From Heptranchias perlo (taxonomy: Eukaryota), in contig NC_090327.1 in the NCBI RefSeq assembly GCF_035084215.1, positions 40,486,001-40,550,000 of the forward strand: a stretch of DNA of 64,000 nucleotides, read 5' to 3'. This document shows positions 3,727 to 63,630 of the stretch, piece after piece. Both the position numbers and the translations under genes were made by a program. Below the pieces are notes generated by a model, which did no database searches, was not told where the DNA came from, and saw nothing but the letters and a program-made list of their open reading frames with translations. Numbering within the stretch: position 1 is the first letter of the stretch; every line of letters begins with the position of its first letter.

Positions 3727-3762
3727 CCACATCCAGTATGAAGCCTGAGAAATGTGAAACTG

Positions 3763-3860
3763 GTCCAAGATGTGGTTTCACAACTCTTGAGATTAATGCT
3801 GTCTGTAATTGGAATGTGAACCTGCCCCTGTGTTATACTGCCGTTTTTGTGTCAATTCAC
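3763..3860. repeat. Left copy of a ~98 bp direct repeat flanking the L2 insertion
   Basis: About 88% identical (12 differences by manual alignment) to 7725-7823. Confidence 0.85.
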
Positions 3861-7027: not shown

Positions 7028-7105
7028 TCGAGGGCAATTAGGGATGGGCATAAATGCTGGCCTTGCCAGCAACGCCCACATCACGTGAACGAATAAAAAA
7101 AAAAA
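7028..7105 (+). mobile_element. 3'-terminal fragment of the tRNA-headed LINE/SINE family with poly(A)
   Basis: TCGAGGGCAATTAGGGATGGGCA(A)TAAATGCTGGCC...GCCCACATC..TGAACGAATA(n) matches the 3' end of the LINE at 56726-60032. Confidence 0.85.
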
Positions 7106-7724
7106 TCTCCTGTTGAAGCCCTCATCCATGATTTTGTTACCTCTAGACTTCACTATTCCAATGCTCTCCCGGCCGGCCTCCCATGGTCCACCCTCCATAA
7201 ACTTGAGCTCATCCAAAACTCTGCTGTCCTTATCCTAACGCGCACCAATTGCCGTTCTCCCATCACCCCATGCTTGCTGACCTACATTGGATCCCGTTCC
7301 GGGAATGCCTCGATTTTAAAATTCTCATCCTTGTTTTCAAATCTTTCTATGACCTCGCCCCTTCATATCTCTGTAACCTCCTCCAGCCCTATAACCCTCT
7401 GAGATCTCTGCGCTTCTCCAATTCTTGCCTCTTGCTCATCCCCGATTTTAATCAGTCCACCATTAGCAGCCGTGCCTTCAGCTGCCTAGGCCCTTAGCTC
7501 TGGAATTCCCTCCATGAACCTCTCCATCTCCCTACCCCGTCTCCTCCTTTAAGTCATTCTTTAAAACCTACCTCTTTGACCAGGCTTTTGGTCACCTGTC
7601 CTAATATTTCCTTATGTGGCTCGGTGTCAATTTTTGTTTGATAATGCTCCTGGGATGTACCTTGGAACGTTTTACTATGTTAAAGGTGCTTTATAAATCC
7701 AAGTTGTTGTTTGCTGTTGTTGTT

Positions 7725-26671: not shown

Positions 26672-28276
26672 GTGCTACTGGATGGACTAAAAATTGGTAA
26701 AGAGGAGGTACTAGAAAGATTGACTGTACTTAAAGTAGATAAGACACCTGGTCCGGATGGGATGCATCCTAGGTTGCTGAGGGAAGTAAGGGTGGAAATT
26801 GCAGAGGTGCTGGCCATAATCTTCCAATCCTCCATAGATATGGGGGTGATGCCAGAGGGCTGGAGAATTGCAAATGTTACACCCTTGTTCAAAAAATGAT
26901 GTAAGGATAAACCCGGCAGCTACAGGCCAGTCAATTTAACCTCGGTGATGGGGAAGCTTTTAGAAATGATAATCTGGGACACAATTAATAGTCACTTGGA
27001 TGAGTGTAGATTAATAAAGGAAAGCCAGCACAGATTTGTTAAAGGCAAATCGTGTTTAACTAACTTGATAGAGTTTTTTGATGAGGTAACAGAGAGGGTT
27101 GATGAGGGCAATGTGGTTGATGTTGTTTATATGGACTTTCAAAAGGCTGTTGATAAAGTGCCACATAATAGGCTTGTCAGCAAAATTGAAGCCCATGGAA
27201 TAAAAGGGGCAGTGACAGCGTGGATACAAAATTGGCTACGTGACATGAATCAGAGTAGTGGTGAACGGTTGTTTTTTGAACTGGAGGAAGGTGTTCCTCA
27301 GAAGTTGGTACTAGGACCACTGTCTTTCTTGATATATATTAAAGACTTGGACTTGGGTGTACAGGGCACAATTTCAAAATTTGCAGATGACACAAAACTT
27401 GGAAGTGTAGTAAAAAGTGAGGAGGATAGTGATAGACTTCAAGAGGACATAGACAGGTTGGTAGCGGACACAAGGCAGATGAAATGTAATGCAGAGTGTG
27501 AAGCGATACATTTTGGTAGGAAGAATGAGGGGAGGCAAAATAAACTAAATGGTACAATTCTAAAGGAGGTGCAGGAATAAAGATACCTGGGGGTATATGT
27601 GCACAAATCTTTGAAGGTGGTAGGACAAATTGAGAAAGTGGTTAAAAAAGCATGTAGGATCCTGGGCTTTATAAATAGAGGTATAGAGTACAAAAGCAAG
27701 GAGGTTATGTTGAAACTTTATAAAACACTGGTTTGGCCACAGCTGGAATTTTGTGTCCAATTCTTTAGGAAGGATGTGAAGGCCTCAGAGAGGGTGCAGA
27801 AATGATTTACTAGAATGGTGCCAGGGGAGAGGGACTTCAGTTACGTGGATAGAGTGAAGAAGTTGGAGTTGTTCTCCTTAGACCAGAGAAGGTTAAGAGG
27901 AGATTAGATAGAAGTGTTCAAAATCATGAAGGATTTAGATAAAGTAAATAAAAAGAAACTTCCTATTGGCAGAACGGTCGAGAACCAGAGGACACAGATT
28001 GGTGATTGGCAAAAGAACCAAAGGCAACATGAGGAAAAACTTTTTTATGCAGCGAGTGGTTATGATCTGGAATGCGCTGCTTGAAAGGGTAGTGGACGCC
28101 AATTCAATCGTTGCTTTCAAAAAGGAATTGGATAAATATTTGAAGGGAAAAAATTTGCAGGGCAACGGGGAAAGTGCAGAGGAATGGGACCAACTGGATT
28201 GCTCTTACAAAGAGCTGGCACGGGCTCATTGGGCCGAGTGGCCGCCTTCTGTGCTGTAACCATTTTATGATTCTAT
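26672..28276 (+). mobile_element. 5'-truncated CR1 LINE (RT to 3' UTR)
   Basis: DKTPGPDGMHPRLLRE, YMDFQKAVDKVPH, SKFADDTKLG, RKNFFMQRVVMIWNAL; ATTCTAT-type tail. Confidence 0.92.
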
Positions 28277-28402
28277 AAGGGGCCTATATAGTGTTGCCAA
28301 TTCTTGTTGGATGTATTCCTGGAGGTTCAATCACATGACACTTGATCACTGACATTATCTGGGCTCACACATGAAGAATGGCAACTCCAGGTGGCTCTCT
28401 GT

Positions 28403-28812
28403 GGAACCATACCTCAGTGAATGTCAGTGCCAGGCAAACCATACTCCAGTGAGAGTCAGTGCCAGGGGAACTGTTACCCAGCAAGAGTTGGTGCCAGTGG
28501 AACTGTACCACAGCGAGAGTCAGCACCTGGGGAACCAGAACATAGCTAGAGTTAGTGCCAGGGTAACTGTACCTCAGTGAAAGTTAGTGGCAGAGCAATG
28601 GTACCACAATGAGAGTTGGTGCCAGGTAAACCGTACCCCAGCAAGAGTCAGTGCCTGCAGTACCATTCAACAGTAAGAGTTAGCACCAGGGTAACTGTAC
28701 CCCAGTGAGAGTCAGCAGCAGAGGAACTGTACCATAGTGAGATTTGATGCCAGGAGAAATGTACCCCAGTGAGAGTCAGCATCAGGGCAACAGTACCCCA
28801 CTGAGAGTCAAT
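28403..28812. repeat. Degenerate 32-bp minisatellite, ~13 copies (consensus ~GGAACTGTACCCCAGTGAGAGTCAGTGCCAGG)
   Basis: Head-to-tail units without unique spacers. The flanks resemble the 3' part of the SINE at 51385-51780. Confidence 0.85.
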
Positions 28813-28962
28813 GTTTTCAGGTGGTGAGGGGAAAAAATTGAACAAAAAAACCCAAAAATGTTCTTGGGTATGTGGATTATTATACTGAGAGGAGGAATTC
28901 CCCTTTATATACTGGGCTATTTACATATATGCTGTCCCTTTAAGAGGTGTTGTATTGCTGAC

Positions 28963-29298
28963 CTTTTTGACGTGTGGTCCAAAGCATTCATATTTTTTAG
29001 GAGCTGAAAGTTGATGATTCGGATTCTTTTTCCCAACACGTGGATTGAGTAGGTCCGTTTAAATTTCGGGTGCAAGACCAGCCCCAGGAATCCCCTCTGT
29101 CCTCTGAGCCATGAGGAGATCAGCACTGCCTTGCTGAGGTTCAGGGATGGCCTGTTGATGCGCAAGCCATTGGGCAGGTAGAGCCACATCAGCCTCACCT
29201 GCTCGGCGATGAAGTAGCGGTATGTTCCGTTGTTGGTGCACAGGATGGCCACAGCATTCCAACTTCCTGCAGAAAAGTTGGAGACAGCCCGAGAAGTC
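28963..29298 (-). pseudogene. Frameshifted exon fragment of an HHIP-like (HHIPL1/HHIPL2-type) gene
   Basis: DFSGCLQL/LQEV/NAVAILCTNNGTYRYFIAEQVRLMWLYLPNG..RPSLNLSKAVLISSW.GQRGFLGLVLHPKFK..RIRIINF..MNALDHTSKR aligns by eye to the HHIPL motif [42 protein letters not shown]..PFLN...VLTSPW.GDERGFLG.AFHP.F..RIRISEF..N.VDH.SER. Ends at a donor-like AAG|GTCAGC. Confidence 0.8.
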
Positions 29299-30116
29299 AA
29301 AGTGTGCATTCGTGAAGCGCGAATGTGAAGTAGTTTTCTCCCAGGTTGCTAGCAACAGTGACCGGGAGATCAATCTTTCTTTCTGGGAGACTCTCAGACA
29401 ATCTGGGAGGATTGGCATTGCTAGACCTATGTGAATTAAGTTTGGGACGTCTCAATATAGTTCCTCATGGACATAGCAAACAACACAAAATTAATTTGGC
29501 ATTATCTGGCAATCTCATTCAGGGAAGCCACAGGATAAGTGATGTCACACTAGTGCAGTAGGGGTGCTTTTCTGAAGTGGAGGTTGAGGTGCATTGTTGG
29601 GGCAGAGTAAAAGGACCTTTATTTTGCACCTGGCTGCACTATACCTGAACTGTACACTGGGTGCCTGAAATGGGAAGGGTACCATCCTCCACATTAAGAG
29701 GCTTGAGCACAAATCTGTGGAGAAAAAATGATGATAAGGTTTGCTGGGTTTTATGATTATTGAGGATGATGCTTTTTAGCTTCTTTTCGAGATAAGTTGT
29801 TTTAATTTCTTCTTTTCTGCCTTGAAGATAGTTACTCAATTGGAGTGCAGTTCCACAGGTGTCATCAGCTCTACAGAACCTTTGTAAAGTGGTCCTCCTT
29901 CATGCGTAAGTCTGAATAGTGAGAGCTCACTGTGGGAGGAGGGTGATCATTGCCAAATAGAATCCTCTCATCCACACACTTTACAGAAGGGGTCACTTGG
30001 TAATGATCAAGGACAGAAATCATGGCTCTGTGATCCCGTGACGCTGAGGCAAATTGTAGCATCCCAACTATGCCTTGACAGAGATCAACAAGGACTGAGA
30101 TTGGACCTGGGACTTC

Positions 30117-31410
30117 CTAATAAAGAATAGTCAGCACGGATTTCAAAAGGGAAATCATGCGTGACCAACCTTATTGAATTCTTTAAAGAAGTAACAGAAA
30201 GGGTAGACAAGGATAATGTAGTAGATGTAATATATTTGGATTTTCAAAAGGTCTTCGATAAAGCACTGCATTGTAAACTCATGACTAAGGTCAGAGCATG
30301 TGGAATCAGGACAAATAGCAGAATGGATAGCAAGCTGGCTACAAAACAGAAAACAAAGAATGGGGGCTAAGGGTATCTACTCGGACTGGCAAAAGAAGGG
30401 AAGTGGTGTTCCACAGGGATCGGTGCTGGGACCACTATTGTTCACAATTTACATTAATGATTTGGATTCTGGAATGGGAACTACAATTTCAAAATTTGCA
30501 GATGATACCAAATTGGATTTTGTAGTTAATACAAATAAAGAATGCATCAAATTGCAAAAAGACATTAATAAACTTGCAGAATGGGTGTATAATTGGCAAA
30601 TGAATTTCAATATAGATAAGTGTGAGGTGGTGCATTTTGGTAGGAAGAATAAGGAAGCCACATACTGCTTGGATAATAAGCATCTAAACCAGATAGAGGA
30701 GCAAAGAGATCTAGGGGTACAGATACACAAATCACTAAAAGTAGCGACGCAGGTTATTAAGGCTATAAAAAAGGCAAATCATGCACTATGGTTCATTTCA
30801 AGAGGGATAGAATTGAAAAGCAAAGAAGTTACTTTACACATGAATAGAACTCAGATTAGACCATACTTGAAGTATTTTGCACAGTTCTGGTCTCCATATT
30901 ATAGAAAGGATATAGAGGCATTGGAGGGGGTGCAAAAAAGATTCACAAGGATGATACCAGGACTGAGAAGAAATCCTCATGTGGAAGGGCTGAATAGGCT
31001 AGGACTCTATTCTCTAGATTGAGAAGGCTGAAGGGTGACCTGATAGGGGCCTTTAAGATAATGAAAGGGTTCGATAGGGTAGATGTAGAGAAAATGTTTC
31101 CACTTGTGGAGGAGTCCAAAACTAAAGATCATAAATATAAGATGGTCACTAATAAATCCAATAGGAAAATCAGGAGAAACTTCTTTAGCCAAGGAGTGAT
31201 AAGAATGTGGAATGCGCTACCACAAGGAGGCAAATAGCATAGATGCATTTAAGGGGAAGCTAGATAAGCACATGATGAAGAAAGGAATAGAAGGGTATCC
31301 TGAAAGGGTTAGATGAAGTAGGGAGGGAGGAGGCTTGCATGGAGCATAAATGCTGGCACAGACTAGTTGGGCCGAATGGCCTGTTTCTGTGCTGTGGTTC
31401 TAATGTAACT
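30117..31410 (+). mobile_element. 5'-truncated CR1 LINE
   Basis: SGVPQGSVLGPLLFTIYINDLD..SKFADDTKL, QFWSPYYRKDI, and a CR1 3' UTR. Confidence 0.92.
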
Positions 31411-32724
31411 TGAAGCAATCTGTATGTTTTAGTACCATTTTATACTGAGCAACTGTGTGATGTGCCTATGAACATTTACAATACGTGAGGTATAATGTAC
31501 TCAGCAATGATCATATTCCAACTTTCCTGTATAGTTATGTAACAACACCATTTTATCCATCAAAATAACATGTTGAAGTTTTCTGAAATGTAGGAATTGT
31601 AGCATTTTAAAACATGTGTTTCCAGTCCACAATGTTAATTTAATTCCTTCAATTTATTTCACATATGATTATTTCAGCCATTAGAATAAATTTGATGTAT
31701 TTTTGAATTGGTAATTTGGGCAACATTGCCAAATAGCTCTCAGTTTTCACATATTAGAGGTAAACATAATTTTTAATGTTGGAAACTTGAAATAACTGTA
31801 GATAATGCTGAAATTACACAACAGGCTGAAAAAGGAAAAACACCCTGACTGTCAGTTCTAAGGAAAGCTCACATATAAAATATTTAAGCCATCTTCCTCT
31901 GCTGTTGGACCTTATCTCAGTTCCATGTAGTACATGCCTTTTATCAAAGCACAGAAATAAATGTAAAAATGCTTTGATAAAACTTTAAGCTGGTAAAATT
32001 TCAAATTGAAATTCCTTCATTTAAATTCAATAAGCGTCATTTGCTACAACGAATGTCTGCGTCAATCCAGGGTTTCTCTGACCAAATATTAACATTTTCT
32101 GTAAAGTAGCACAGTTCTTTATTTAAAATTTTCAATTCTGCACCAGCTTCCTGGCACTAAATAAACTTTCCAGCAGAAAATGTATCATTTCCATTCTTTG
32201 CTAGATACCAGACCATCATTAATGGATTCTTGTCTTCCTGCCAATAACTATAGTCGCTTTTATTGCATCTTTGATTAATGAATATGATTTCTTGAACTGT
32301 ATAGCACTTTACTTGTTCTCAGCAAATGGGCTTAATTACAGAAATTACAGTGTTTGACAGCCTCAAGATAAAATCAGATTCTCTTTATTCTCTATGCTCT
32401 TGATTCAAAAGTGTTCTAGGTTCATCACAAAAGTACCATAACTATATGGCTAGAAAATGCTCTATACTACAGTGTTTGTACTTTGTATGGAGAGAGCAGG
32501 TTGTAGTAAACTTGGTGCTGGAGTGAACAATGCATATTGAACCTGTTGATAATGTAAGCCAAAATAAATGGAACCAATGTCTTAAATATCTGGATGCTAA
32601 AAACGGCTGCAGCCCTTCATTAAAATGGCTAAGTTCAATATATAGCCACAACCAAAAGTGAGGAAACAATGGCCTAGCAATTACTCCCAATTTGCAATTA
32701 TTTACATTTTAGGCCCTAAGACTT

Positions 32725-33568
32725 GGAAGGAGCAGATATGGCAAAAGTTGAAAATGTGAAGTCATCCAGTTTGGGAGGAAAAATAAAAAAGCAAAATATT
32801 ATTTGAATGGAGAAATACTACAAAATGCTGCGGTACAGAGGGATCTGGGTGTCCTCGTACATGAAACACAAAAAGTCAACATACAGGTGCAGCAGGTAAT
32901 CCAGAAGGCAAACAGAATATTGACCTTTATTTCTAGGGGGATGGAATATAAAAGCAGGGAAGTCACACTACAACTGTACAGAGTGCTGGTGAGACCACAC
33001 CTGGAGTACTGCGTACAGTTCTGGTACCCTAATTTAAGGAAGGACATACTTGCATTGGAGGCAGTTCAGAGAAGGTTCACTAGGATTATTCCGGGTATGG
33101 AAGTGTTGTCTTATGAGGAAAGATTGAACAGGTTGGGTCTATACTCATTGGAGTTTAGAAGGATGAGAGGAGATCTTATTGAAACATACAAGATTCTGAG
33201 GGGACTCAATAGGGTAGATGCTGAGAGGATGTTACCCCTCATGGGGGAATCTAAAACTAGGGATCATAGTCTCAGAGTAAGTAAGACAGAAATGAGGAGG
33301 AATTTCTTCTCCCAGAGGGTCTGAATCTTTGGAATTCATTACCCCAAAGAGCTGTGGAGGCTCAGTCATTGAATACATTCAAGGCTGAATTAGACAAATG
33401 TTTGATCAGCAAGAGAGTCAAAGGATATGGGGAAAAGGCGGGAAAGTGGAGTTGAGGTAAAAATCAGATCAGCCATGATCTTGTTAAATGGCGGAGCAGG
33501 CTCGAGGGGCTGAATAGCCTACTCCTACTCTTATCTTTTATGTTCTTATGGTCTCTTATGGTCTTATG
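32725..33568 (+). mobile_element. 5'-truncated CR1 LINE
   Basis: 173-aa ORF RDLGVLVHE..LYRVLVRPHLEYCVQFW; CTTATG(T/G)T-repeat tail. Confidence 0.92.
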
Positions 33569-33694: not shown

Positions 33695-34097
33695 ATGGTC
33701 ATGGCAATGTCGTGGTTATGTTACTAGGCTAGTAATTCAGAGACCATAGATTCACATCTCACCACAGCAGTATGAGAATATAAATTCAGTCTTTTTTAAA
33801 AAAATTGGAAATAAAAAACTGGTATTAGTAAAAGTGAAGCTGACAGATTGTTGTATAAACCCAACTGACTAATGTCCTTTAGGGAAGGGCATCTGATGTC
33901 CTTACCCGGTCTGGCTTATGAGAGACTCCAATCCCACATAAAAGTTGTTTGACTCTGAAGTGCCCTAGAAAGTCGCTCATTTGTATCAAAATTGCCACAA
34001 AGAATAATAAGCCCCACCACCACCTTCAAAGGGCAACTAGGGATGGGCAATAAATGCTGATGTTGCCAGTGATGCCCATATCCTGAGTATGAAAAAA
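33695..34097 (+). mobile_element. Decayed SINE made of the tRNA-like head/5' UTR and the 3' tail of the LINE at 56726-60032
   Basis: GTGGTTATGTTACTAGGCTAGTAATTCAGAG head; CTAATGTCCTTTAGGGAAGG..GTCCTTACCCGGTCTGGC body; CACCACCTTC..GGGCAACTAGGGATGGGCAATAAATGCTG tail. Confidence 0.85.
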
Positions 34098-36344: not shown

Positions 36345-37373
36345 TTTTTTTGTTATTCGTTCATGGGATGTGGGCGTCGTAGGCGAGGCCAACATTTATT
36401 GCCCATCCCTAATTGCCCTTGAGAAGGTGGTGGTGAGCCGTCTCCTTGAACCGTTGCAGTCCGTGTGGTGAAGGTATTCTCCCACAGTGCTGTTAGGTAG
36501 GGAGTTCCATGATTTTAATCCAGCGATGATGAAGGAACGGCGATATATTTCCAAGTCGGGATGGTGTGTGACTTGGAGGGGAACGTGCAGGTGGTGTTGT
36601 TCCCATGTGCCTGCTGCCCTTGTCCTTCTAGGAGATAGAGGTCGCGGGTTTGGGAGGTGCTGTTGAAGAAGCCTTGGTGAGTTGCTGCAGTGCATCCTGT
36701 GGATGGTACACACTGCAGCCACAGTGCGCCGGTGGTGAAGGGAATGAATGTTTAGGGTGGTGGATGGGGTGCCAATCAAGCGGGCTGCTTTATCTTGGAT
36801 GGTGTCGAGCTTCTTGAGTGTTGTTGGACCTGCACTCATCCAGGCAAGTGGAGAGTATTCCATCACACGCCTGACTTGTGCCTTGTAGATGGTGGAAAGG
36901 CTTTGGGGAGTCAGGAGGTGAGTCACTCGCCGCAGAATACCCAGCCTCTGACCTGTTCTTGTAGCCACAGTATTTATATGGCTGGTCCGGTTAAGTTTCT
37001 GGTCAATGGTGACCCCCAGGATGTTGATGGTGGGGGATTCGACGATGGTAATGCCGTTGAATGTCAAGGGGAGGTGGTTAGACTCTCTCTTGTTGGAGAT
37101 GGTCATTGCCTGGCACTTGTCTGGATGTTATTTACCACTTATCAGCCCAATCCTGGATGTTGTCCAGGTCTTGCTGGATGCGGGCACGGACTGCTTCATT
37201 ATCTGAGGGGTTGCGAATGGAACTGAACACTGTGCAGTCGTCAGCGAACATCCCCATTTCTGACCCTATGATGGAGGGAAGGTCATTGATGAAGCAGCTG
37301 AAGATGGCTGGGTCTCGGACACTGCCCTGAGGAACTCCTGGGGCTGAGATGATTGGCCTCCAACAACCACTAC
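36345..37373 (-). mobile_element. 5'-truncated copy of the tRNA-headed LINE family, nested in the L2
   Basis: 236-aa ORF nearly identical to the C-terminus of the 887-aa ORF at 56791-59454; GMFADDCTVF motif. Confidence 0.92.
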
Positions 37374-37545
37374 CGAACTCGCACCAACTCCCATTCACCT
37401 ATCACCCCTGTGCTCGCTGACCTACATTGGCTCCTGGTCTGGGAATGCCTCGATTTTAAAATTCTCATCCTTGTTTTCAAATCCCTCCATGGCCTCACCC
37501 CTCCCTATCTCTGTAACCTCATCCAACCCTACAAATCTCTGATAT

Positions 37546-40215: not shown

Positions 40216-40967
40216 GTTCCAGACAAATGCCAGGCAATGACCATCTCCAACAAGAGAGAATCTAACCACCTCCCCTTGACATTCAACGGCATTACCATCG
40301 CTGAATCCTCCACCATCAACATCCTGGGGGTCACCGTTGACCAGAAACTTAACTGGACCAGCCACATAAATACTGTGGCTACAAGAGCAGGTCAGAGGCT
40401 GGGTATTCTGCGGCGAGTGACTCACCTCCTAATTCCCCAAAGCCTTTCCACCATCTACAAGGCACAAGTCAGGCGTGTGATGGAATACTCTCCACTTGCC
40501 TGGATGAGTGCGGCTCCAACAACACTCAAGAAGCTCAACACCATCCAGGACAAAGCAGCCCGCTTGATTGGCACCTCATCCACCACCCTAAACATTCACT
40601 CCCTTCACCACTGGCACACAGTGGTTGCAATGTGTACCATCTACAGGATGCACTGCAGCAACTTGCCAAGGCTTCTTCGACAGCACCTCCCAAACCCACG
40701 ACCTCTACCACCTAGATGGACAAGGGCAGCAGGCACATGGGAACAACACCACCTGCACGTTCCCCTCCAAGTCACACACCATCCTGACTTGGAAATATAT
40801 ATCGTCGCTGGGTCAAAATCCTGGAACCCCACTGTGGGAGAATCTTCACCATAGGGACTGCAGTGGTTCAAGGCGGCTCACTACCATCTTCTCAAGGCAA
40901 TTAGGGATGGGCAATAAATGCTGGCCTTGCCAGTGATGCCCACATCCCATGAACAAATAAAAAAAAA
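40216..40967 (+). mobile_element. 5'-truncated copy of the tRNA-headed LINE family
   Basis: 205-aa ORF matching the C-terminus of the 887-aa ORF; same 3' UTR and poly(A). Confidence 0.92.
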
Positions 40968-46971: not shown

Positions 46972-48406
46972 AATAGGAACATAGGAACATGAGTAGGTCA
47001 TTCAGCCCCTCGAGCCTGTTCCGTCTTTCAATGAGATCATGGTTGATCTGTATCCTAAATCCATTTACCTGCTTTGACTCCATATACCTCAATATCCTTG
47101 GCTAGCAAAAATCTGTCGATCTCAGATTTAAAATGATTAATTGAGCTAGCATCTACTCCTTTTTTGTGGGGAGTGTTCCACAATTCTACCACCCTTTGTG
47201 TGAAGAAGTGTTTCCTAACTTCTCTCCCGAATGACTTGGCTTTGATTTTAAGGATGTGTCTCCTTGTCCTAGACTCCCCCACCAGCAGAAAAAGTTTCTC
47301 CCTATCTACCCCATCAATTCCTTTCAAAAACCTAAAAACATCAATCAAATCACCCCTTAACTTCCTATATTCCAGGGAATACAGCCTAGTTTATGTAATT
47401 TCGCCTCATAATTTAACCCTTGGAGCTCTGGTAACATTCTGGTGAATCTGCACTGCACTCCTTCCAAGGCCAATATATCCTTTCTGAGGTGTGGTGCCCA
47501 GAATTGTACACAGTACTCCAGATGTGGTCTAACCAGGACTTTGTATGGCTGTAGCAAAACATCCTTTCCTTTTATATTCTAGCCCTCTAGTTATAAAGGC
47601 TAACACTCCATTAGCCTTTTTGATTATTTTTTGTATCTGACCACTACATTTTAGTGATTTGTGTACATGGACCCCCAAATCTCTTTGGCCCTCCACTGTT
47701 CCTAGCCTTTCACCATTTATAAGTACTTGGATCATAGAATCATAGAATGGTTGCAGCACAGAAGGAGACCATTCGGCCCATCGAGCTCGTACCGGCTCTT
47801 TGTAAGAGCAATCCTGTTAGTCCCATTCCTCTGCTCTTTCCCCGTAGCCCTGCAAATTTTTTCCCTTTATGTATTTATCTAATTTCTTTTTGAAAGCCAT
47901 GATTGAATCTGCTTCCACCACCCTTTCAGGCAGCGCATTCCAGATCATAACTACTCACTGTGTAAAAAGGTTTTTTCTCAAGTTGTCTTTGGTTCTTTTG
48001 CCAATCACCTTAAATCTTTGTCCTCTGGTTCTCGACCCTTCCACCATGGGAACAGTTTCTCTTTATTTACTTTACCTAAACCATTCATGATTTTGAACAC
48101 TTCTATCAAATCTCCTCTTAACCTTCTCTGCACTAAGGAGAACAACCTCAACTTCTCCAGTCTATCCAGGTACTGAAGTCCTTCATCCCTGGAACCATTC
48201 TAGTAAATCTTTTCTACACCCTCTCTAAGGCCTGCACATCCTTCTTAAAGTGTGGTGCCCAGAATTGGACACAATACTCCAGTTGTGGCCGAACCAGTGT
48301 TTTATAAAGCTTCAACATAACTTCCTTGCTTTTGTACTCTATGCCTCTATTTATAAAGTCCAGGATCCCATATGTTTTTTTAACCGCTTTCTCAACCTGT
48401 CCTGCC
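46972..48406 (-). mobile_element. Two adjacent 5'-truncated CR1 copies (46972-47730 and 47732-48406)
   Basis: Each has LVRPHLEYCVQFWAPH or LVRPQLEYCVQFWAPH and its own 3' UTR and tail. Confidence 0.9.
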
Positions 48407-48510
48407 ACGGTTTCCCATGCCCCCTATCTATTGCAGGGCAAAAGGGAGCCCACCCAATTATCCATCCATTTAACTTAATGGACACACAATTAAATTCACT
48501 CCATACAAGT

Positions 48511-49258
48511 ACCAGCAATGACCATCTCCAATATGAGAGGATCTTGTCACCTCCCCTTGACATTTAATGGCATTACCATTGCCGAGTCCCCCACCATCAA
48601 CATCCTGGGAGTCACCATTGACTGGAAACTCAACTGGACCAGCCACATAAATGCTGTGGTACTAGAGGCTGGGTATTTTGTGGCACATGGCTCACCTCCA
48701 GACTCCCCACCACTTACAAGGCACAAGTCAAGAATGTGATGGTATACTCCCAACTTTGCCTGGATGGGTGCAGCTGCAACAACACTCAAGAAGCTTGACA
48801 CCACTCAGGACAAAGTAGTCCACTTGATCGGCAACTTATCCACTCGCTTAAACATTTACCCCCTCCACTCCTGGCATACCATGGCTGCAGTGTATACAAT
48901 CTACAAGTTGCTCTGCATCAACTTGCCAAGGCTGCTTCAGCTTCTTCTACCTCCCAAACTTGCGACTTCCACCACCTAGAAGGACAAGGACAGTGGGCAA
49001 ATGGGAACACCATCACCTCCAAATTCCCTTCCAAGTTGCACACCATTCTGATTTGGACAATCAAAAGAGATTTGTTCAATGTTGCTGGGTCAAAATCCTG
49101 TAACTCCCTACCTAACAGCACTGTGGGAGCCCCTTCACCACACGGGCTGCAGCGGTTCAAGAAGAAGGATCACCACCGCCTTCTCAGGGCAACTAAGGAT
49201 AGGCAATAAATGCCGGCCTTGCCACTGACACCCACATCCTAATAATAAATTTTAAAAA
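48511..49258 (+). mobile_element. Older, diverged 3' copy of the tRNA-headed LINE family
   Basis: HLPLTFNGITIAESPTINILGVTID, TTLKKLDTTQDK and the same 3' UTR. Confidence 0.88.
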
Positions 49259-51384
49259 GTGCCATCACTGGCAGGAGATGTAATTACAGTGTAATAAGTT
49301 TACATGGACAATTTACATTATAAATAGGGACATGGGAATTCTTAATGGAAATATAAAAATATGGACAGAATCTATGACTAAAATGGGGACTGAGTTACAT
49401 CTTTGGGCCCTGGTCCAATTATCCCCTGGCCTCTAACTCTGCTTCACATGAAGACTACACTTACCATTGACTCCCTGTATGCAACTCTGTAGGAGATTGA
49501 CTAGTCACTTATATAAATGAAGACAAAAGAGATCCCAACACTGATCTTTGGGGCACACTACTACTCACAAACCAACTTACACACATTTGCCCCTACTCTG
49601 TTATCTGGTCACCTCTCTACTCGTCCCTTTTAATGTCATGCGCCTTAATTTTCATTAAAATCTTTTACAAGGCATTTTATTAAATACCTTCTGAAAATGA
49701 AACTACTAAGGATGAAAAGTTGAAAAGTGTAAAAGATTAGTAAGTGCCAAGCTTGAATTTTAAAAGCATGAGGAGGAAGGAAAGAAGGATTTAAGGAGTT
49801 CTACAGTTGTAAGGTCCTAGGAAAGAACAAATCAGAAATGGAGTCTGTGCTAACTGCTACAAAGATTTCTCAGGTTTGTATGGCTCATTACCACATCAGT
49901 AGTACATTTACACACTATGCCATCAGGGGATGCTAAAGCCACTTTTTATCAAAATGGGTTTGCATCAGCACAATCTGTAATGTATAACTGACTTGTAACA
50001 CGCTCAGATATGCATGGGCCTCTGGCATAAGCCAATTTTTTTCTGACTTTCTCACTTAATGAGAATCATTATAAGATGCAATATCATCACTATTTCATGA
50101 TTCACAAGGATAGCATAATAATTTAAGGTCAAATAATTTGCATTGATGATTTTAACCCCTTGAGCACGATGAGAGTGGGCCGTGCAGGGGATAAAATATT
50201 ATCAGCATGACACTCACCAGATCCACAATGCACATGTGCCGTGCTCTATTTTAACAGTTGCGTTTCGGGCCGCATGTGAGGCGCTCACCCTAGGCAGATG
50301 AGAGCCTCATTAAGACTCAGAAGTTGGGCTCTATTGACGTCAATCATTAGAGGGGAAGCAGGCCCAGAAGAGGTGTGAGAAGGTCAGTTAATTAAACTTT
50401 TTAAAGTTTCCTTGTGGGTCTGGAGAAACAGGAATGTTCCTCTGGGCCCCACAAAGAAAGGGTCTCCCTTTCCCCAGGCGTCCCCTCTCCCTGATAATGA
50501 TCTGTGTTGGCCCCTCCTCACCCCCTGATCTACTTACCTGACTGTCGGGGACCGATCCTGTGGGTCCCCTCCTGCTGCACTCGCATGACTCCTGTCTGCT
50601 AGCCTCACGTTATTGATGCTGGGTCAGGGCGAGAGTCGGGACTGTTGTATTTAAGTGAGACTTTTGAGTTAAAATAGCCCAAGCCTCATTCAGCAAGCTT
50701 GACCCTCGCCCTGCTGGTCCCATGCTTGTCGCTCGCCCCCAAGTAAAAGTCTTGGCTAATAACTCTGACATTTTATATTACTTTCTATAAAGCTGCATTT
50801 CTATCAAGTCCGCCAATTCTGATGGAATAAGGATCAACAGGAAACAGATTAAAAATGCAAAAAAATAGGACAGATTAAGAATAAAGAATGCAGGTGACAC
50901 AGCCTGTTAATACGCCATAGAGTGGTTGAGTTTTTCCAAATGGCAAGCTACCGACCTCAGCTGGAGCTGTCTGGGGAGGCCGGATGGAAACTAGGAAGGG
51001 AAAGTCGATATACATTTACATCCATTCCCTACTAGTTGATATGACATTACTGGGTAATGTTGCCTTGTCCAAACCTTGGTTGGTGGTAAGAGTATTGTTT
51101 GGGGGATTTTACTGAGGAAGATACTTGAAAAAAAGGCAAACGTTACTGGAACCTTGGCAATGCTGGATTTCTGTATCAGGTTAAGACTGTGCAAACATTT
51201 GGCACAAATTCATTTTTGAGTCAGTGCCAAAGAATACATCATGTACATTGCCTTCATTATTAGTGTGATCTGGATACGTTTTGACTGAATTAACACGTGT
51301 ACATGTGTGTGTGTGAATGCAAGTTAATGTCGATCTAGGAGATTCAAATTCATTCAAGTTCTCTGTTCTATATGGAACATTAAC

Positions 51385-54700: not shown

Positions 54701-56790
54701 ATTCTTTCCCTATTCTTTTGCTAAAATTGGTTGTTTAATCTGTATGCTCAGTGTGCACCAGTTAGATTAGGAAAAGCTCTGACTAAGGAAAGGTCATTGC
54801 TGAGGTCACATTGTATGAGGCCATAACTTCAAAGAAGTTTATCTCTTTTACAACACCATTAAGTCATTGGTAATGGCCTATTGTCTTTCATCATCTCAGG
54901 TCTTCTACCTGCTTATTTACTTCCAGACAAACTACAGAATTCAAGGCACAGTGTAAACAGGTGCTTTTCTGCTTCTTACTTCTTACCCATACCACAACCT
55001 TAACATTAAAAGGTAATGAGATCATTTGTTTAAAAAAATGTAATCATACACAATAGGAGGGCTTTCTATTTCAAGAGCCAATGATAGAACAAGAAACTAA
55101 TGAATAATTATTTTTTATATAATCCACTAAATTATATTTATTAGTTTTTTCCCTTTCCAGCTCTGCACTTCCCCCCCTTAATTGCCTCTTCTTTGCATAC
55201 AACTTCCTTGAATGTCATTAGCTTCCATAAATACTGTCCAGCCAACAACAGGTACATACAGGACATATTAAGAGCCAATATTGCCCACAATGAAGATCGC
55301 ATAAATTGCCAAGCATAAAAATTGTTAACCTTGAGTCCTAGTTGCAGAAGGTCAATCTCAGGAGCTGTATGCAGTGATCATAGCAGCTCTGCTATTATTC
55401 GGCAAGACCAGAAGCCATCCTAATCGAAGGCTGAGGTGGACTTTTTCCTTCTCTTTCTATATCTACCTCTTCACTGTGATAAACGATTTTATCAAGCTGG
55501 CTGCCAGAAAAGTGATAACAATTCAACTGTGCGTGGTGGATACAGGGTACGAAGTTTTGATCTGATACTCAAGTGTTATTTCTCCTCCTCCCCCCAAATG
55601 CCCTCCCCTGCCCTCACGCAAACACTTAACTGGATTTTGTAATGATAGGAAACCAAGAAAACCTTTATTAAATACAAAACCTTATAAATTTCTTTGTTTT
55701 GCATCTTACTGTAGGGAAGCCACCTGAGCTTTACTGGATTTTCATCAGATAGCCTCAGTTTTTGAACTATAACAAGGATTTAGGAATTTTGCAACACTGA
55801 AAAAAGGGTTCTGATCCTTGAACGGAGGATCATTTACAAATCCAGATGATTATGTGGTTGGAAAGCCACTCCTGTAATTTACTGGTAATTAGTAGAAAAA
55901 TAATGAAAGGTTCCTAAAAGTCTCGACAGTCTTCAAGAAAATAAAATAATTTCTTTTTTACTCCTTCAAAAAAGAACTAGATAATATTTGGTGAGGAATA
56001 GTGAAGAAATTATAGGGATAAATATGGACAGAACTAATCAAATACTCCATAGAACACCATGGTTCCTGTGCGGCTGAACCAAGGAAATGCCATCTGTGGA
56101 AAGCCAACCAGAAGTAAATACTGGACGTGTAAGAATAGATATCCTGGAGTTTTGCTTGATTTTCTTTGTAGATGAGGGAGATATTTTGCAGAGTTTTGCC
56201 CTCAGTAACTATAGGAGAACCATAAAAGTTAACAGCACAGAAGGCCATTTGTCCCATCTTGTCTGTGCCAGCTCTTTGCCAGAGCAATCTAAAACTAATC
56301 GCACTGCCTTGCACTATCCCTAAAGCAGTGCATCTTCCTCTTCCCTTAAAAAGATGTAATGCTTTCTGACTCAACTGCTTCCTGTGGCAAAGCATTCCAT
56401 GCTCTTATAACACTCTGTAAATAAATTTCTACTAACCTCTCTCCTCACTCTCTTAGCGACAATTTTAAATTGATAACCCTTCATAACTGACTTCTCAACC
56501 AGAGGAAATAGTCTTTCTCTATTATTCTATCAGAACTCTACATAATTTTAAAAACTCCTCTTAACATTCTCTGATTCAGTGGAAATAGTCCCAATACCTG
56601 AAGTCTCTCCTCATAACTATAATCCTGCTATAATTGTGGTGAATCTGAGTTGTATACACTTTATGGGGTAGATTCTGTTGAAATGGCACAGGAGAGCTCA
56701 AGTAAGAGATGTGGAGGTATTACCATTTTTTAAAAAATTCGTTCATGGGATGTGGGCGTCGCTGACGAGGCCAGCATTTATTGCCCATCC

Positions 56791-59728
56791 CTAATTGCCC
56801 TCGAGAAGGTGGTGGTGAGCCGCCTTCTTGAATCGCTGCAGTCCGTGTGGTGACGGTTCTCCCACAGTGCTGTTAGGAAGGGAGTTCCAGGATTTTGACC
56901 CAGCGACGATGAAGGAACGGCGATATATTTCCAAGTCGGGATGGTGTGTGACTTGGAGGGGAACGTGCAGGTGGTGTTGTTCCCATGCGCCTGCTGCTCT
57001 TGTCCTTCTAGGTGGTAGAGGTCGCGGGTTTGGGAGGTGCTGTCGAAGAAGCCTTGGCGAGTTGCTGCAGTGCATCCTGTGGATGGTGCACACTGCAGCC
57101 ACAGTGCGCCGGTGGTGAAGGGAGTGAATGTTTAGGGTGGTGGATGGGGTGCCAATCAAGCTGGCTGCTTTATCTTGGATGGTGTCGAGCTTCTTGAGTG
57201 TTGTTGGAGCTGCACTCATCCAGGCAAGTGGAGAGTATTCCATCATACTCCTGACTTGTGCCTTGTAGATGGTGGAAAGGCTTTGGGGAGTCAGGAGGTG
57301 AGTCACTCGCCGCAGAATACCCAGCCTCTGACCTGCTCTCGTAGCCACAGTATTTATATGGCTGGTCCAGTTCAGTTTCTGGTCAATGGTGACCCCCAGG
57401 ATGTTGATGGTGGGGGATTCGGCGATGGTAATGCCGTTGAATGTCAAGGGGAGGTGGTTAGACTCTCTCTTGTTGGAGATGGTCATTGCCTGGCACTTAT
57501 CTGGCGCGAATGTTACTTGCCACTTATGAGCCCAAGCCTGGATGTTGTCCAGGTCTTGCTGCATGCGGGCTCGGACTGCTTCATTATCTGAGGGGTTGCG
57601 AATGGAACTGAACACTGTGCAGTCATCAGCGAACATCCCCATTTCTGACCTTATGATGGAGGGAAGGTCATTGATGAAGCAGCTGAAGATGGTTGGGCCT
57701 AGGACACTGCCCTGAGGAACTCCTGCAGCAATGCCCTGGGGCTGAGATGATTGGCCTCCAACAACCACTACCATCTTCCTTTGTGCTAGGTATGACTCCA
57801 GCCACTGGAGAGTTTTCCCCCTGATTCCCATGGACTTCAATTTTACTAGGGCTCCTTGGTGCCACACTCGGTCAAATGCTGCCTTGATGTCAAGGGCAGT
57901 CACTCTCACCTCACCTCTGGAATTCAGCTCTTTTGTCCATGTTTGGACCAAGGCTGTAATGAGGTCTGGAGCCGAGTGGTCCTGGCGGAACCCAAACTGA
58001 GCATCGGTGAGCAGGTTATTGGTGAGTAAGTGCCGCTTGATAGCACTGTCGACAACACCTTCCATCACTTTGCTGATGATTGAGAGTAGACTGATGGGGC
58101 AGTAATTGGCCGGATTGGATTTGTCCTGCTTTTTGTGGACAGGACATACCTGGGCAATTTTCCACATTGTCGGGTAGATGCCAGTGTTGTAGCTGTACTG
58201 GAACAGCTTGGCTAGAGGCGCAGCTAGTTCTGGAGCACAAGTCTTCAGCACCACAGCTGGGATGTTGTCGGGGCCCATAGCCTTTGCTGTATCCAGTGCA
58301 CTGAGCCGTTTCTTGATATCACATGGAGTGAATCGAATTGGCCGAAGACTGGCTTCCGTGATGGTGGGGATATCGGGAGGAGGCTGAGATGGATCATCCA
58401 CTCGGCACTTCTGGCTGAAGATGGTTGCAAACGCTTCAGCCTTGTCCTTTGCACTCACGTGCTGGACTCCGCCATCATTGAGAATGGGGATGTTTGCAGA
58501 GCCTCCTCCTCCCGTTAGTTGTTTAATTGTCCACCACCATTCACGACTGGATGTGGCAGGACTGCAGAGCTTTGATCTGATCCGTTGGTTGTGGAATCGC
58601 TTAGCTCTGTCTATAGCATGTTGCTTCCGCTGTTTAGCATGCATGTAGTCCTGAGTTGTAGCTTCACCAGGTTGGCACCTCATTTTTAGGTACGCCTGGT
58701 GCTGCTCCTGGCATGCTCTTCTACACTCCTCATTGAACCAGGGTTGATCCCCTGGCTTGTTGGTAATGGTAGAGTGAGGAATATGCCGGGCCATGAGGTT
58801 ACAGATTGTGCTGGAATACAATTCTGCTTCTGCTGATGGCCCACAGCGCCTCATGGATGCCCAGTTTTGAGCTGCTCGATCTGTTCTGAATCTATCCCAT
58901 TTAGCACGGTGGTAGTGCCACACAACACGTTGGATGGTGTCCTCAGTGCGAAGACGGGACTTCGTCTCCACGAGGACTGTGTGGTGGTCACTCCTACCAA
59001 TACTGTCATGGACAGATGTATCTGCGACAGGTAGATTGGTGAGGACGAGGTCAAGTAAGTTTTTCCCTCGTGTTGGTTCGCTCACCACCTGCCGCAGGCC
59101 CAGTCTAGCAGCTATGTCCTTCAGGACTCGGCCAGCTCGGTCAGTAGTGGTGCTACCGAGCCACTCTTGGTGATGGACATTGAAGTCCCCCACCCAGAGT
59201 ACATTCTGTGCCCTTGCTACCCTCAGTGCTTCCTCCAAGTGGTGCTCAACATGGAGGAGGACTGATTCATCAGCTGAGGGAGGACGGTAGGTGGTAATCA
59301 GCAGGAGGTTTCCTTGCCCATGTTTGACCTGATGCCATGAGATTTCATGGGGTCCAGAGTCAATGTTGAGGACTCCCAGGGCCACTCCCTCCTGACTGTA
59401 TATCACTTGTACCGCCACCTCTGGTGGGTCTGTCCTGCCGGTGGGACAGGACATACCCAGGGATGGTGATGGAAGAGTCTGGGACGTTGGCTGAAAGATA
59501 TGATTCTGTGAGTATGGCTATGTCAGGCTGTTGCTTGACTAGTCTGTGGGACAGCTCTCCCAATTTTGGCACAAGTCCCCAGATGTTAGTAAGGAGGACC
59601 TTGCAGGGTCGACTGGGTTTGGTGTTTTTTTGCCGTTGTCGTGTCCGGTGCCTCGTGGTCCGTCCGGTTTTATTCTTATTCTGACTTTTCGTAGCGAGAT
59701 TTTACAACTGAGTGGCTTGCTGGGCCAT
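56791..59728 (-). pseudogene. Endonuclease/reverse transcriptase ORF of the LINE (~978 aa reconstructed; one in-frame TAA at 59702-59704 and one +1 frameshift at ~59408)
   Basis: ATG at 59728 is in frame with the 70-aa ORF 59360-59572. Removing one A in GGT ACA A GTG joins that ORF to the 887-aa ORF. Confidence 0.8.
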
Positions 59729-59950
59729 TTCAGACGGCAATTAAGAATCAACCACATTGCTGTGGGTCTGGAGTCACATATAGGCCAGACCGGGTAAGGA
59801 CGGCAGGTTTCCTTCCCTAAAGGACATTAGTGAACCAGATGGGTTTTTACGACAATCCGGTAGTTTCATGGCCACCATCCCTGATACTAGTATTTTAATT
59901 CCAGATTTTTATTTAATGAATTGAATTTAAATTCGCCAGCTGCCGTGGCG

Positions 59951-60032
59951 GGATTTGAACTCATGACTCTGGATTTTAGTCCAGGCCTCTGGATTACTAG
60001 TCCAGTAACATAACCACTATGCTACCGTACCC
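59951..60032 (-). promoter_or_regulatory. tRNA-derived type-2 RNA polymerase III promoter-like head
   Basis: A box TAGCATAGTGG (60024-60014), B box GAGTTCAAATCC (59962-59951), anticodon-like arm CTGGA-CTAGTAA-TCCAG. Confidence 0.75.
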
Positions 60033-62176
60033 GAGTACACCATTGAAGTGGTGTAAGAGGTTTTAGGGTTGCGCATGTATGAAATTCCAGTTAGGAGAAA
60101 TTATTAGATATAGTGCATGATCCTGAGTTAGAGCTCCCTTAACCAGAGTGCACCGTGAATGGTTAGTTGTACAAGTGTTTCCTTAAGAGGGTGAAGAATG
60201 TGCTGGTGCCTAGAGTGGGCAAGGAAGAAAAGGGAGAGTGTCTGGGTATGTTACCTTGCCTTCTTGATGAGGTCATTGAATTTCTTGCAGCCCTGGGACT
60301 AGTGCCAGTTCTACCTTTCTCTCAAGTTGGCATGAATGACATTCTTGGCATGCTTGTTGGCACACAAACCTTTGAGTCTGTGCCTCCTTACTTTAATTTC
60401 CTTGAAGAGGGCTTGGAGGTCTGAGTCAAAAAAATTCTGAGTTCTTTTTCTGAGCCTTGATGCTATGCCCTGCTGCCTTGTTTGGTTGCTTGTTCCAGAG
60501 GGTCCTGCTGTAGATATTCTTGAAAAGTATGATGAAAAAATTGCTGAGAGATGGTCTTAGCACCGTCACATATTTTGGCGGGAACAGGGCAGTAGCAAGA
60601 CCAAAATCACAGTACAGCAATTACTGCCCTGTCCCCACTGACATCTGATCCGCTAAAATTTTGGAATGGGCTGAGAAATAGGGGTTCCACATTCCGACCC
60701 TAAGCAGGTGGGAGCTTCATTCATTTATGCAAATCAAGGTTCTTAAAGGAACTGCTGGAGGCTGCTTGGCAAGTGCTTCAAGTACGTTTGCAGGCTGAAC
60801 TGTCTTTTTAAGGGCTGTATTCCAATTTCCATGCACTGCTGTAGCTTACACCCGTTTTATACAGGACTTACACCATTTGCGGTTCCAATGGGCACACAGA
60901 TAAGCTGACCCAGGAAACCCTCATGCAAATACCTCTCGATCACCAACAGGTGCCAATCCTTTTTTAATGGTGTGACAGCAGCTCATGTCACTGCATGGAA
61001 ATTCTCCCCCCACATCTTCTGCATTCTCTTTATCCATACAACCAGTCACTTCTTCAAAAAACTCTGTTGTTTGTCAAACTTGAGTTAACATGCACGTTGG
61101 CTGTCCTTGATTAGCCCATGTATCTCTAATTTTGATCTTGATTTATGGATTCTAAGAGTTTGCCCACAACTAACATTAGGCTAAGTGGCCTATAGTTACC
61201 CCTTCTTGAACAAGGCTGTTACATCACTATTCCCCAGTCATATGGCACAATTTGCATATTGAAGGTGAATTTAAAAATTATGGTCAGATCCTCTGCTACC
61301 TCCTCTCAGACTTCTTTCAACTGCCTAGTGATTGATCCAATTTTGAGTTCTGTTATTTTTTCAGAGCCAATTCCTTTTCTACAGTGATCTCTAACAATTT
61401 TTCCATATCTTCCTCTAGTACATCAATGTCCATTATTTCCAGAAATGCAAAATACTTATTTAATATTTCCATCATACCTTCATCCTCCACAACTAGACTT
61501 CCCTCTTCATGCCTGTGCAGCTATACCCACACTTAAGTAACATTTACTTTTAATAAACATATAGAAACCTTTACTATTGCCTTTTACCTGCCAGCCTTTC
61601 TTCATATTGCATTTTAGCCCTGTTAATCTCCCTATTCATGTTCACACTCCACTTTCTATATTCCTTGTGATTTTCTTTAATATTGTTAGCCCTTCTTTTA
61701 TCACATGCCCCATTTAAGATTCTGTTTAGTTTTAATCTCTATTTATTTATGGAATTCTTTCCTTTGATGAACCATTTTATAGGAATATATCTATTTTGTA
61801 ATCTATCCATCTTGTATTTGAAGATTCCCCACTGTTGGAGATTTAATAAATTGGGTTGAATCCATGATAGAACAGATCACGGTCTGTGGAAGGAGGGAGT
61901 TTGATGAGACGCATTACCTTTTCTTTTTTTGTGTTTTCTTATATTGTGTAGGGCTGAGTGAAATACAAGTCTGACCTAACAAAACAGAGTAATTGGTTAA
62001 TTATATGGTTCGGGCAGATTAACAAATATCTATTGGTTACCTGCTGACATTCTGACACTTAAAAAAACAACTATTATCAATCTGCCAGTTGTTCATATGT
62101 TTTGGAAACATGTAAGCAATATAACAAATTAAAATAGGAAGATTAGACTTTTTTAGTACCATCGGTAGTAATCGAA

Positions 62177-63630
62177 CTACATAGAATTACATAGAATGTA
62201 CAGCAGAAACAAACCATTTGGCCCAACTGGTCTATGCCGGTGTTTATGCTCCACAAGAGCCTCTTCCCTCCCTATTTCATCTGACCCTATCAGCAAACCC
62301 TTTTATTCCTTTCTCCCTCATGTGTTTATCTAACTTCCCGTTAAATGCATCAATGCTAGTTACCTCAACTACTCCTTGTGGTAGCGAGTTCACTCTCTGG
62401 GTAAAGAAGTTTCTCCTGAATTCACTATTAGATTTATTAGTGATTATCTAATATTTATGACCTCTAATTCTGGTCTCCCCTGCAAGTGGAAACATCTTCT
62501 CTACATCTACCCTATCAAACCCTTTCATAATCTTAAAGACCTCTATCAGGTCACCCCTCAGTCTTCTCTTTTCTAGAGAAAAGAACCCCAGTCTGTTCAA
62601 TCTTTCCTGATAGGTATAACCTCTCAGTTCTGTTATCATCCTGGTATTAACTATACCCCTCAATTTGGTGTTGTCCGCAAATGTTGAAATTGTATTTCTG
62701 ATTCCTGAGTCCAATCATTTATGTAAATGGTGAACAACTGTGGTCCCAGCACTGATCCTTGTGGAACACCACTTCCCACCTTTTGCCAATTTGAGTAACT
62801 ATCTTTAACCCCTACTTTTAGCCTTCTGTTTTGTAGCCAGTTTGCTATCCATTCTGTTACTTGTCCTCTGACTCCCCATGCTCTGACCTTAGTCATGCGT
62901 CTACTATGCGGCACCTTATCGAAGGCCTTTTGAAAATCCAAATATATTAAATCTATTGCATTACCCTTGTCTACTCTTTCTGTTACTTCAAAGAATTACA
63001 ATAAGGTTGGTCAAGCATGACCTTCCCTTTGAAATCCGTGCTGACTATTCTTTATTATATTTTTGGTTTCTAGATGTTTTTCTATTACATCTTTGAGTAA
63101 GGTTTCCATTATCTTTCCACCACTGACATTAAGCTAATTGGCCTATAGTTCCCTGGACTTGTTCTATTTCCCTTTTTAAATACAGGAATAACATTAGCTG
63201 TCCACCAGTCCTCTGGCATTATTCCCTTTTCTAGTGAATTTGTATACATATGTAATAATGCATCTGCTGCTAGCTTCTTTTAATATGCGCAGATGCAATC
63301 CATCCAGACCAAGGGTTTTTATCCTCTCTAAGTTTGATCAGTTTATCAATTATCTTTATTTTTTTATATCTCTTCTTCAAATGCCCTGCCCACCATGTTA
63401 GTCTCCTTGGTAAGTAATGAGGCAAAGTAACTATTCAATATTTCTGACATTTCGCTGTCGCTGCTTATAAGTTCATCATGTGCATTCCTTAGTGACCCTA
63501 TCCCTATCCTGATTTTTCTTTTGTTATTTATGTGTCTGTAGAATACTTTATTTTTTTAAATATTCCTTGATGATTTAATTGTGGTTTTGACTTCTTTCCT
63601 AACTTTTTCATATTCCCTTTTGTCATCCTT
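62177..63630 (-). mobile_element. CR1 LINE with internal deletions
   Basis: DFQKAFDKVPH, SGVPQGSVLGP, FADNTKL fused directly to RMITELRGY; 3' UTR at ~62177-62330. Confidence 0.88.

Follow-up and report, generated by a model that had tools for sequence, protein, structure and literature searches.

A shark and ray retrotransposon with a tRNA-derived head, few T runs and an AUG-less reading frame: a candidate for transcription by RNA polymerase III

We examined a 64,000-nucleotide (nt) stretch of the Heptranchias perlo genome (NC_090327.1, positions 40,486,001 to 40,550,000; hereafter the window), in which positions 56726-60032 of the minus strand hold a full-length copy, with one frameshift, of a 3.3-kb retrotransposon of the type lacking long terminal repeats (non-LTR). 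An initial annotation, made from the letters alone, had proposed that RNA polymerase III (Pol III) transcribes this long interspersed element (LINE). From the comparisons described below, it appears likely that Pol III transcribes the element from the A and B boxes of a tRNA-Ser-derived head. We also lean towards a fuller reading, in which an autonomous, protein-coding shark and ray retrotransposon has been made by Pol III since before sharks and rays split, its uncapped RNA having been cleared of terminators and being translated, with no AUG, by way of a conserved 150-nt leader element.

The family and its consensuses are already known, whereas neither transcription by Pol III nor the absence of a start AUG was found in the literature covered. 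LINEs are described as coding and made by RNA polymerase II (Pol II), and short interspersed elements (SINEs) as non-coding and made by Pol III (PMC5786205, PMC10886601). If our reading is correct, a 3.3-kb messenger made in nature by Pol III, with an AUG-less open reading frame (ORF) of 970 codons, would break this rule, and the element would in effect be a SINE encoding its own reverse transcriptase, Pol III otherwise being thought to make non-coding RNAs only. It would also provide a vertebrate model for the translation of uncapped RNA, and would test the proposal that the polymerase decides the need for ORF1 (PMC2666806). Intact copies in the genome make a direct test possible.

Structure, head and family of the element

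From 5' to 3', the element consists of a tRNA-like head, a 330-nt leader, an ORF for an apurinic/apyrimidinic-type endonuclease (APE) and a reverse transcriptase (RT), a short 3' untranslated region (UTR) and a T6A6 tail, where Tn and An denote runs of n identical letters. Its features, all on the minus strand, are as follows.

59947..60032, minus: tRNA-Ser(AGA)-derived head (alignment, Rfam); the element's 5' end lies at about 60032
60014..60024, minus: A box, TAGCATAGTGG (sequence; conservation over copies)
59951..59962, minus: B box, GAGTTCAAATCC (sequence; conservation over copies)
59703..59852, minus: non-coding block, near-invariant across elasmobranch consensuses (by eye)
59539..59757, minus: out-of-frame, AUG-initiated upstream ORF, 72 codons here
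59600..59701, minus: N-terminal leader of the main ORF, rich in Arg and lacking AUG; an in-frame TAA at 59704-59702 immediately precedes it
56791..59701, minus: single APE endonuclease and RT ORF, about 970 codons if intact
56738..56790, minus: 3' UTR with AATAAA at 56782-56777, common to a short form described in the last section
56726..56737, minus: T6A6 tail, likely a decayed poly(A); T4 is absent in 33 of 37 family tails

The element contains the Pfam domains Exo_endo_phos_2 and RVT_1, and a Pfam search returned no family for the frame upstream of them. The single APE-RT ORF and the absence of ORF1 described initially were borne out, but the frame is not open in this copy, which has a 1-nt insertion near 59407 relative to the intact copy L063. 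The ORF is open over 967-972 codons in 3 of 38 full-length copies; intact copies in the H. perlo genome include L054, L063, L152 and L154. Target-site duplications were not clear, with best matches of 3-7 nt in 35 of 36 copies. The family is a young single-ORF APE-RT LINE.

As originally described, the element starts with a tRNA-like head bearing A and B boxes, located at 60024-60014 and 59962-59951. Aligned with a tRNA-Ser(AGA) gene from this genome, the head scored 53.5, compared with 42.5 for the best of 500 shuffles, and by this comparison it derives from tRNA-Ser(AGA). Its Rfam tRNA match is weak (E 0.047, below the gathering score, covering model positions 8-63), and ARAGORN called no tRNA in the window. 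By eye, the acceptor stem and T-stem are unpaired while the box sequence has been kept, a combination that fits a promoter rather than a tRNA fold. Across 46 copies, 7 differences were found among 552 letters of the A box and 6 among 552 of the B box. An Rfam scan of 59500-60200 at E up to 10 returned tRNA only, with no match to a hepatitis delta virus (HDV)-like or other ribozyme.

This head is a property of the family. A genome search with the first 636 nt, in which 40 of 2087 candidates were scored, retrieved 39 loci outside the window. All of them run on into the ORF, with 5' ends no more than 13 nt apart, and 37 reach the element's 3' end within the retrieved stretch. Because this set had been chosen by the head, a second set was drawn by the endonuclease as a check: 8 of its 16 copies begin at position 1-3, and the other 8 are truncated at scattered points with no common other head. 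Together with the published consensuses discussed next, these data confirm that the head occurs on full-length copies family-wide and is not a chance juxtaposition of a SINE and a LINE.

By sequence comparison, the element is a member of the elasmobranch CR1-Zenon family, for which consensuses were published in 2026 (Stuart et al., PMC13343379). Seven Zenon consensuses in Supplementary Table 2 of that paper come from elasmobranchs: white shark, whale shark, catshark, spiny dogfish and a stingray. Judged by eye over their first 400 nt, all seven (CarCar, RhiTyp, ScyCan, SquAca and HypSab; five species, one a ray) open with the H. perlo element's head, including A- and B-box-like motifs, and its leader, and about nine in ten letters are shared with SquAca_Zenon-1. 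The spacer between the boxes differs between species, whereas the boxes are unchanged. Six B-box 10-mers match just six rows of the supplement (first 400 letters per row), all of them elasmobranch Zenon. By eye, three Zenon consensuses from hagfish and coelacanth lack the head within their first 400 letters. Zenon is defined in that paper by a missing ORF1 and a poly(A) tail; the elasmobranch Zenon-1 consensuses are 3.2-3.3 kb long with a single APE-RT ORF, no ORF1 and a poly(A) tail, and the H. perlo element likewise has no ORF1, a single APE and RT ORF and tails of poly(A), T4 being absent from 33 of 37. We see no difference in kind, although the head, the T scarcity and the missing AUG go unremarked in the paper's main text, which gave no match for tRNA, polymerase III, pol III or start codon. 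In its available portion, a whale shark preprint names CR1-Zenon once. No tRNA-headed or Pol III-transcribed LINE was found in a literature search over titles, abstract openings and text passages, whose scope excluded Repbase, Dfam, SINEBase, bioRxiv supplements and most subscription journals; its one hit for a protein-coding SINE was 10.1101/2021.11.26.470093.

In a quick RT tree (130 of 136 rows), which contained no named Zenon reference protein, the element fell in an 18-row clade (SH-aLRT support 95) with sponge and unnamed single-ORF elements, these relatives being 35-40% identical. It lay apart from CR1 and L2 of the same genome and did not group with canonical vertebrate CR1 or L2; the CR1 copies drawn by the endonuclease search have a protein identity of only about 20-37%. 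In contigs from four organisms the element is represented across all 30 of its bins, and sequencing runs from several organisms hold 33-74% of its 31-mers. Among named proteins, the nearest matches are one shark (81%) and one ray (82%) gene model in which parts of the element are included. Such shark and ray models with translated element pieces (P0015 and P0112, one of them aldo-keto reductase-like) are likely annotation artefacts.

Several minor observations concern the 5' end and its tRNA relatives. In 2 of 39 copies (L039 and L068; G000:C1:110204458-110204506) an inverted piece of the head lies directly before the element as a 5' fold-back. Nine loci (L031, L033, L036, L044, L046, L047, L053, L054 and L063) have one to three additional letters (C, TC or CTC) before the usual first G, as does the window copy at 60033-60035; these are perhaps the leader of a source locus, as in a pre-tRNA. 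Large arrays of tRNA-Ser(AGA)-like genes occur on G000:C1414 and C1089, many at a spacing of about 3 kb, and an exact tRNA-Ser(AGA)-like pattern has 105 matches genome-wide. A regular expression for A plus B boxes matched none of 63 metagenome loci, but it also missed the element's own copies and is uninformative; relaxed ARAGORN settings gave scattered hits on these loci, which we set aside.

Scarcity of T runs and the start of the reading frame

The initial counts of T runs proved exact: over 56740-60032 the sense strand contains no T4 and seven T3 (the plus strand has 0 A4 and 7 A3 runs), and the antisense strand carries 18 runs of four or more T (T4+). The element forms the longest A4-free gap in the window, 3496 bp, the runner-up being 1815 bp. 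Truncated copies in the window share the avoidance, with no T4 in 36420-37374 or in 40219-40900, and CR1 and L2 pieces carry sense T4 freely, at 4-7 each in four fragments. (Canonical CR1 and L2 fragments lie at 2931-7542, 26702-33401, 47112-48405 and 62313-63549; some of them served as controls.) Genome-wide, 38 young copies have 5 T4 runs in 122 kb (0.04/kb), 33 of them having none; a second set has 1 in 51 kb, and 20 older copies have 7 in 39 kb. Rates in the same genome are 2.2-3.1/kb for CR1 (30 copies) and 2.6/kb for L2 (10 copies), so that T runs are about 60-fold rarer in the element than in L2. No T4 site is common to at least half of the element's copies, compared with 9, 6 and 6 such sites in the CR1 and L2 sets. 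Outside H. perlo, none of the seven elasmobranch Zenon consensuses has T4 in its first 400 nt, whereas T4+ is present in the first 400 letters of the three head-less hagfish and coelacanth consensuses (both by eye).

Because the copies descend from one ancestor, significance was assessed on single sequences. Shuffles preserving codon usage gave 11.7 expected T3 against 4 observed (P 0.0003), with A, C and G runs normal, and T3 scarcity was significant throughout (P 0.005 or less). When the codon usage of CR1 or L2 from the same genome was imposed, the probability of zero T4 was 0.002 or 0.023, and none of 2000 draws reached so low a T3 count. In the intact copy L063, TTT is the most depleted CpG-free trimer, and 6-nt windows holding five T number 0 on the sense and 24 on the antisense strand. 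Phe makes up 2.0-2.1% of residues, below all but one of 29 relatives listed, and is encoded by TTT in 3 of 19 cases. As a control, 63 of 80 metagenome loci had a stop-free frame of at least 400 codons; 62 of these ORFs carry 5-49 T4 runs, but most are richer in T, which makes the control a weak one.

Among source lineages, purifying selection acts on the ORF: the ratio of non-synonymous to synonymous rates (dN/dS) is 0.24 for variants found in at least 3 of 46 copies, compared with 0.71 for singletons and 0.69-1.68 for shifted frames. Nevertheless, the first Met lies at residue 245, 250 or 281 in three intact copies, where the endonuclease domain ends or beyond it. In 34 of 38 copies the ORF is preceded by an in-frame TAA (the other four were unmatched by the pattern). 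Between this TAA and the first endonuclease motif, shared indels are of +15, +3 and -3, and of the 36 copies that could be scored 35 stay in frame; at positions 55-243, by contrast, most shared indels are not multiples of three. Shared substitutions in the leader, small in number, are four non-synonymous and four synonymous in the main frame, versus seven and one in the overlapping AUG frame. The lack of Met before residues 245-281, combined with a leader that keeps frame, implies non-AUG initiation, which likely occurs near element positions 332-370. The unusual translation predicted initially is thus supported by the AUG-less endonuclease domain, the eight upstream AUGs in the leader and the frame-keeping N-terminal sequence.

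In four of the five published Zenon-1 consensuses, judged by eye, the same Arg-rich leader shares its frame with a retained GCT codon, and from that codon to the end of the 400 letters these four contain no in-frame AUG; in the dogfish Zenon-1 consensus the frame is off by one base in an A run. The published Zenon-1 consensuses carry an out-of-frame AUG that the H. perlo family lacks. An in-clade relative, L070, has a true AUG and 20 T4 runs, and other relatives begin with M, though gene callers are biased toward that. The upstream ORF at 59539-59757 is probably not a conserved gene: its stop is altered in 13 of 46 copies, and shared variants are mostly non-synonymous in its frame. The AUG at element position 276 was considered as the true start and was rejected by the shared-variant analysis.

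Ribosomes may reach the N-terminal leader by internal entry or by re-initiation after short upstream ORFs. The non-coding block at 59703-59852 is a candidate translation or RT-binding element; it folds no better than shuffles (z -0.79) and matches no Rfam family, whereas the whole 373-nt 5' end folds better than shuffles (z -2.43). Annotation tools will miss the endonuclease domain if they require an ATG, and they will divide the element into a SINE and a LINE.

Transcription model and alternatives

Type-2 Pol III promoters consist of A and B boxes, vertebrate Pol III stops at four or more T, and Alu transcription stops at a T run in the flanking DNA. In the model that we propose, TFIIIC and Pol III would start near +1 at the head, and the polymerase would read 3.3 kb without meeting a terminator and stop, as for Alu, at a T run in the flanking DNA. 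The uncapped RNA would be translated via internal entry or re-initiation, from a codon other than AUG that closely follows the in-frame TAA. Once made, the APE-RT protein would attach to the 3' tail and, through target-primed reverse transcription, bring about insertion of the RNA; it would also mobilise the short form of about 400 nt.

A type-2 promoter retained at +1, the loss of T runs and the loss of the AUG coincide in the elasmobranch lineage, and all three are predicted by Pol III transcription. None is predicted directly if the LINE instead took over the 5' portion of its own SINE through template switching and Pol II makes the full-length RNA, either starting at a promoter within the 330-nt leader or by read-through. 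Under that account, T scarcity would reflect a preference for C-ending codons or the avoidance of U-rich Pol II signals, and translation would proceed by AUG-independent re-initiation. In its favour, Pol II is taken to be the polymerase of LINEs (PMC10886601), the element has both AATAAA and poly(A), L2 from this genome likewise prefers C-ending codons (T4 observed/expected 0.54), and an in-frame AUG-GCC-UAG mini-ORF is conserved 21-27 nt upstream of the N-terminal leader (consensuses by eye). Such an account gives no reason for the boxes to have survived in sharks and a ray although the stems have decayed, or for T runs to be so much rarer than in L2 when A, C and G runs are normal; the eight upstream AUGs, moreover, would hinder cap-dependent scanning. 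We consider it possible but doubtful. That the head acts as an RNA-processing signal, cut by RNase P or similarly to free an uncapped element RNA from longer Pol II transcripts, would account for the fixed 5' end, the retained head and the non-AUG translation, and has a precedent in the HDV-like ribozymes of R2 and L1Tc (PMC6765202). It does not explain the loss of T runs, and it fits poorly with the partial Rfam match, the silence of ARAGORN, the unpaired acceptor and T stems and the lack of any ribozyme family match, so that we regard it as improbable. Least credible of all, in our view, is that neither the head nor the T scarcity still has a role, both being relics, and that either polymerase reads through by chance from the flanking DNA: the slow sequence evolution evident from the 31-mers shared among organisms could keep neutral features, but the spacer between the boxes has changed between species and the boxes have not.

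A number of points weigh against transcription by Pol III. The initial annotation had relied in part on the absence of T4 runs. Their depletion does exceed that in CR1 and L2 and in sequences with their codon usage, but against shuffles of the element's own codons zero T4 lies within chance (P 0.087 and 0.145; 0.07-0.24 for three intact copies), as the Pol II account would have it. The copies are not independent, so that T scarcity is one evolutionary event, and shared variants lack the power to reveal selection against newly arising T4 (43 sites, with 3 singletons, a single doubleton and none shared by at least 3). One of the 63 metagenome ORFs (401 amino acids) also lacks T4, and five match the element's T3 deficit yet keep 8-27 T4 runs. 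One T3 site reads TCTTT, a weak terminator that stops about half of transcripts in mouse B2 (PMC12101331). The element has no family-wide terminator of its own (tail T4+ in 4 of 37), and the AATAAA 40 nt before the tail would suit Pol II equally. In the short form, T4+ immediately follows the B box in 21 of 30 copies of a set biased by its T6-bearing query, and in 10 of 25 copies of an unbiased set chosen by the 3' half (mode T3); we read these runs, without proof, as post-insertion growth of a T3A6 tract. Pol III transcripts are reported to retrotranspose without ORF1 (PMC2666806), which agrees with the model, but since all Zenons lack ORF1, its loss is no sign of Pol III and is uninformative on this question. 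Of the initial interpretation, then, the family-wide head and the need for unusual translation have held up, while T4 runs considered alone against the element's own codons have not, and the 3' T6 is not a built-in terminator.

Elements resembling this one in part are known. SINE2 elements, including bipartite SINEs built from LINE ends (PMC5786205), share the A/B-box tRNA head, a conserved body and a LINE-type tail. The short form at 33712-34095 fits their description, being short and non-coding, whereas the long form is 3.3 kb and encodes its own 970-residue enzyme under purifying selection; SINEs are described as unable to encode a protein (Kojima 2018, PMC5786205). R2 and L1Tc also have a single ORF, with uncapped RNA and IRES-like translation (IRES, internal ribosome entry site) as our model would have it here, and R2 relies on a polymerase other than Pol II (PMC6765202). 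R2 differs in being a site-specific Pol I co-transcript freed by an HDV-like ribozyme (PMC6765202), whereas the present element has no Rfam ribozyme match, dispersed insertions and an APE-type endonuclease. The TRIMs (terminal-repeat retrotransposons in miniature) Cassandra, Helenus and Ajax are, similarly, non-SINE retroelements with Pol III promoters derived from small-RNA genes, but they are non-autonomous, non-coding LTR elements (Kojima 2024, PMC10886601). The Deu-SINEs SacSINE1 and LmeSINE1, of shark and coelacanth, resemble the short form in their tRNA head, length of about 400-460 nt and LINE tail, and their partner is given as L2-2_CM or CR1-4_DR-like (PMC5499810, PMC3747384).

Short form, 3' end and other copies

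Four further copies of the family lie in the window.

33712..34095, plus: old SINE-like short-form copy, element positions about 1-330 joined to the last ~100 nt
36355..37374, minus: 5'-truncated copy, 94% identical
40219..40958, plus: 5'-truncated copy, 90% identical
48487..49261, plus: old 5'-truncated copy, 78% identical

The short form, about 400 nt long, occurs at 33712-34095 and at least 29 other loci, its 5' part being 72-83% identical to the LINE. Its joint was seen in contigs of all four sequencing runs examined (contigs of guessed RNA). The short form either arose from the headed LINE by deletion or is a SINE that donated the LINE's head. The body and tail of SacSINE1 presumably differ from those of the H. 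perlo element and its short form, and we do not equate the two. A search intended to reveal an older subfamily instead yielded members of this family that are more diverged.

The T6 at 56732-56737 had been noted initially as the first sense T run. As a built-in terminator it was rejected, since 33 of 37 family tails lack T4 and just 4 have T4+; the run is likely a product of post-insertion decay of poly(A). Tracts of T followed by A appear to turn from A to T with age (T1An to TnAn), with T4+ in 4 of 37 young and 7 of 25 old tails, and such conversion can mimic a Pol III terminator. Elsewhere in the genome, at L151:2322-4760, a truncated copy lies inside a CR1, where an 813-codon open frame runs from the CR1 endonuclease apparently into the element.

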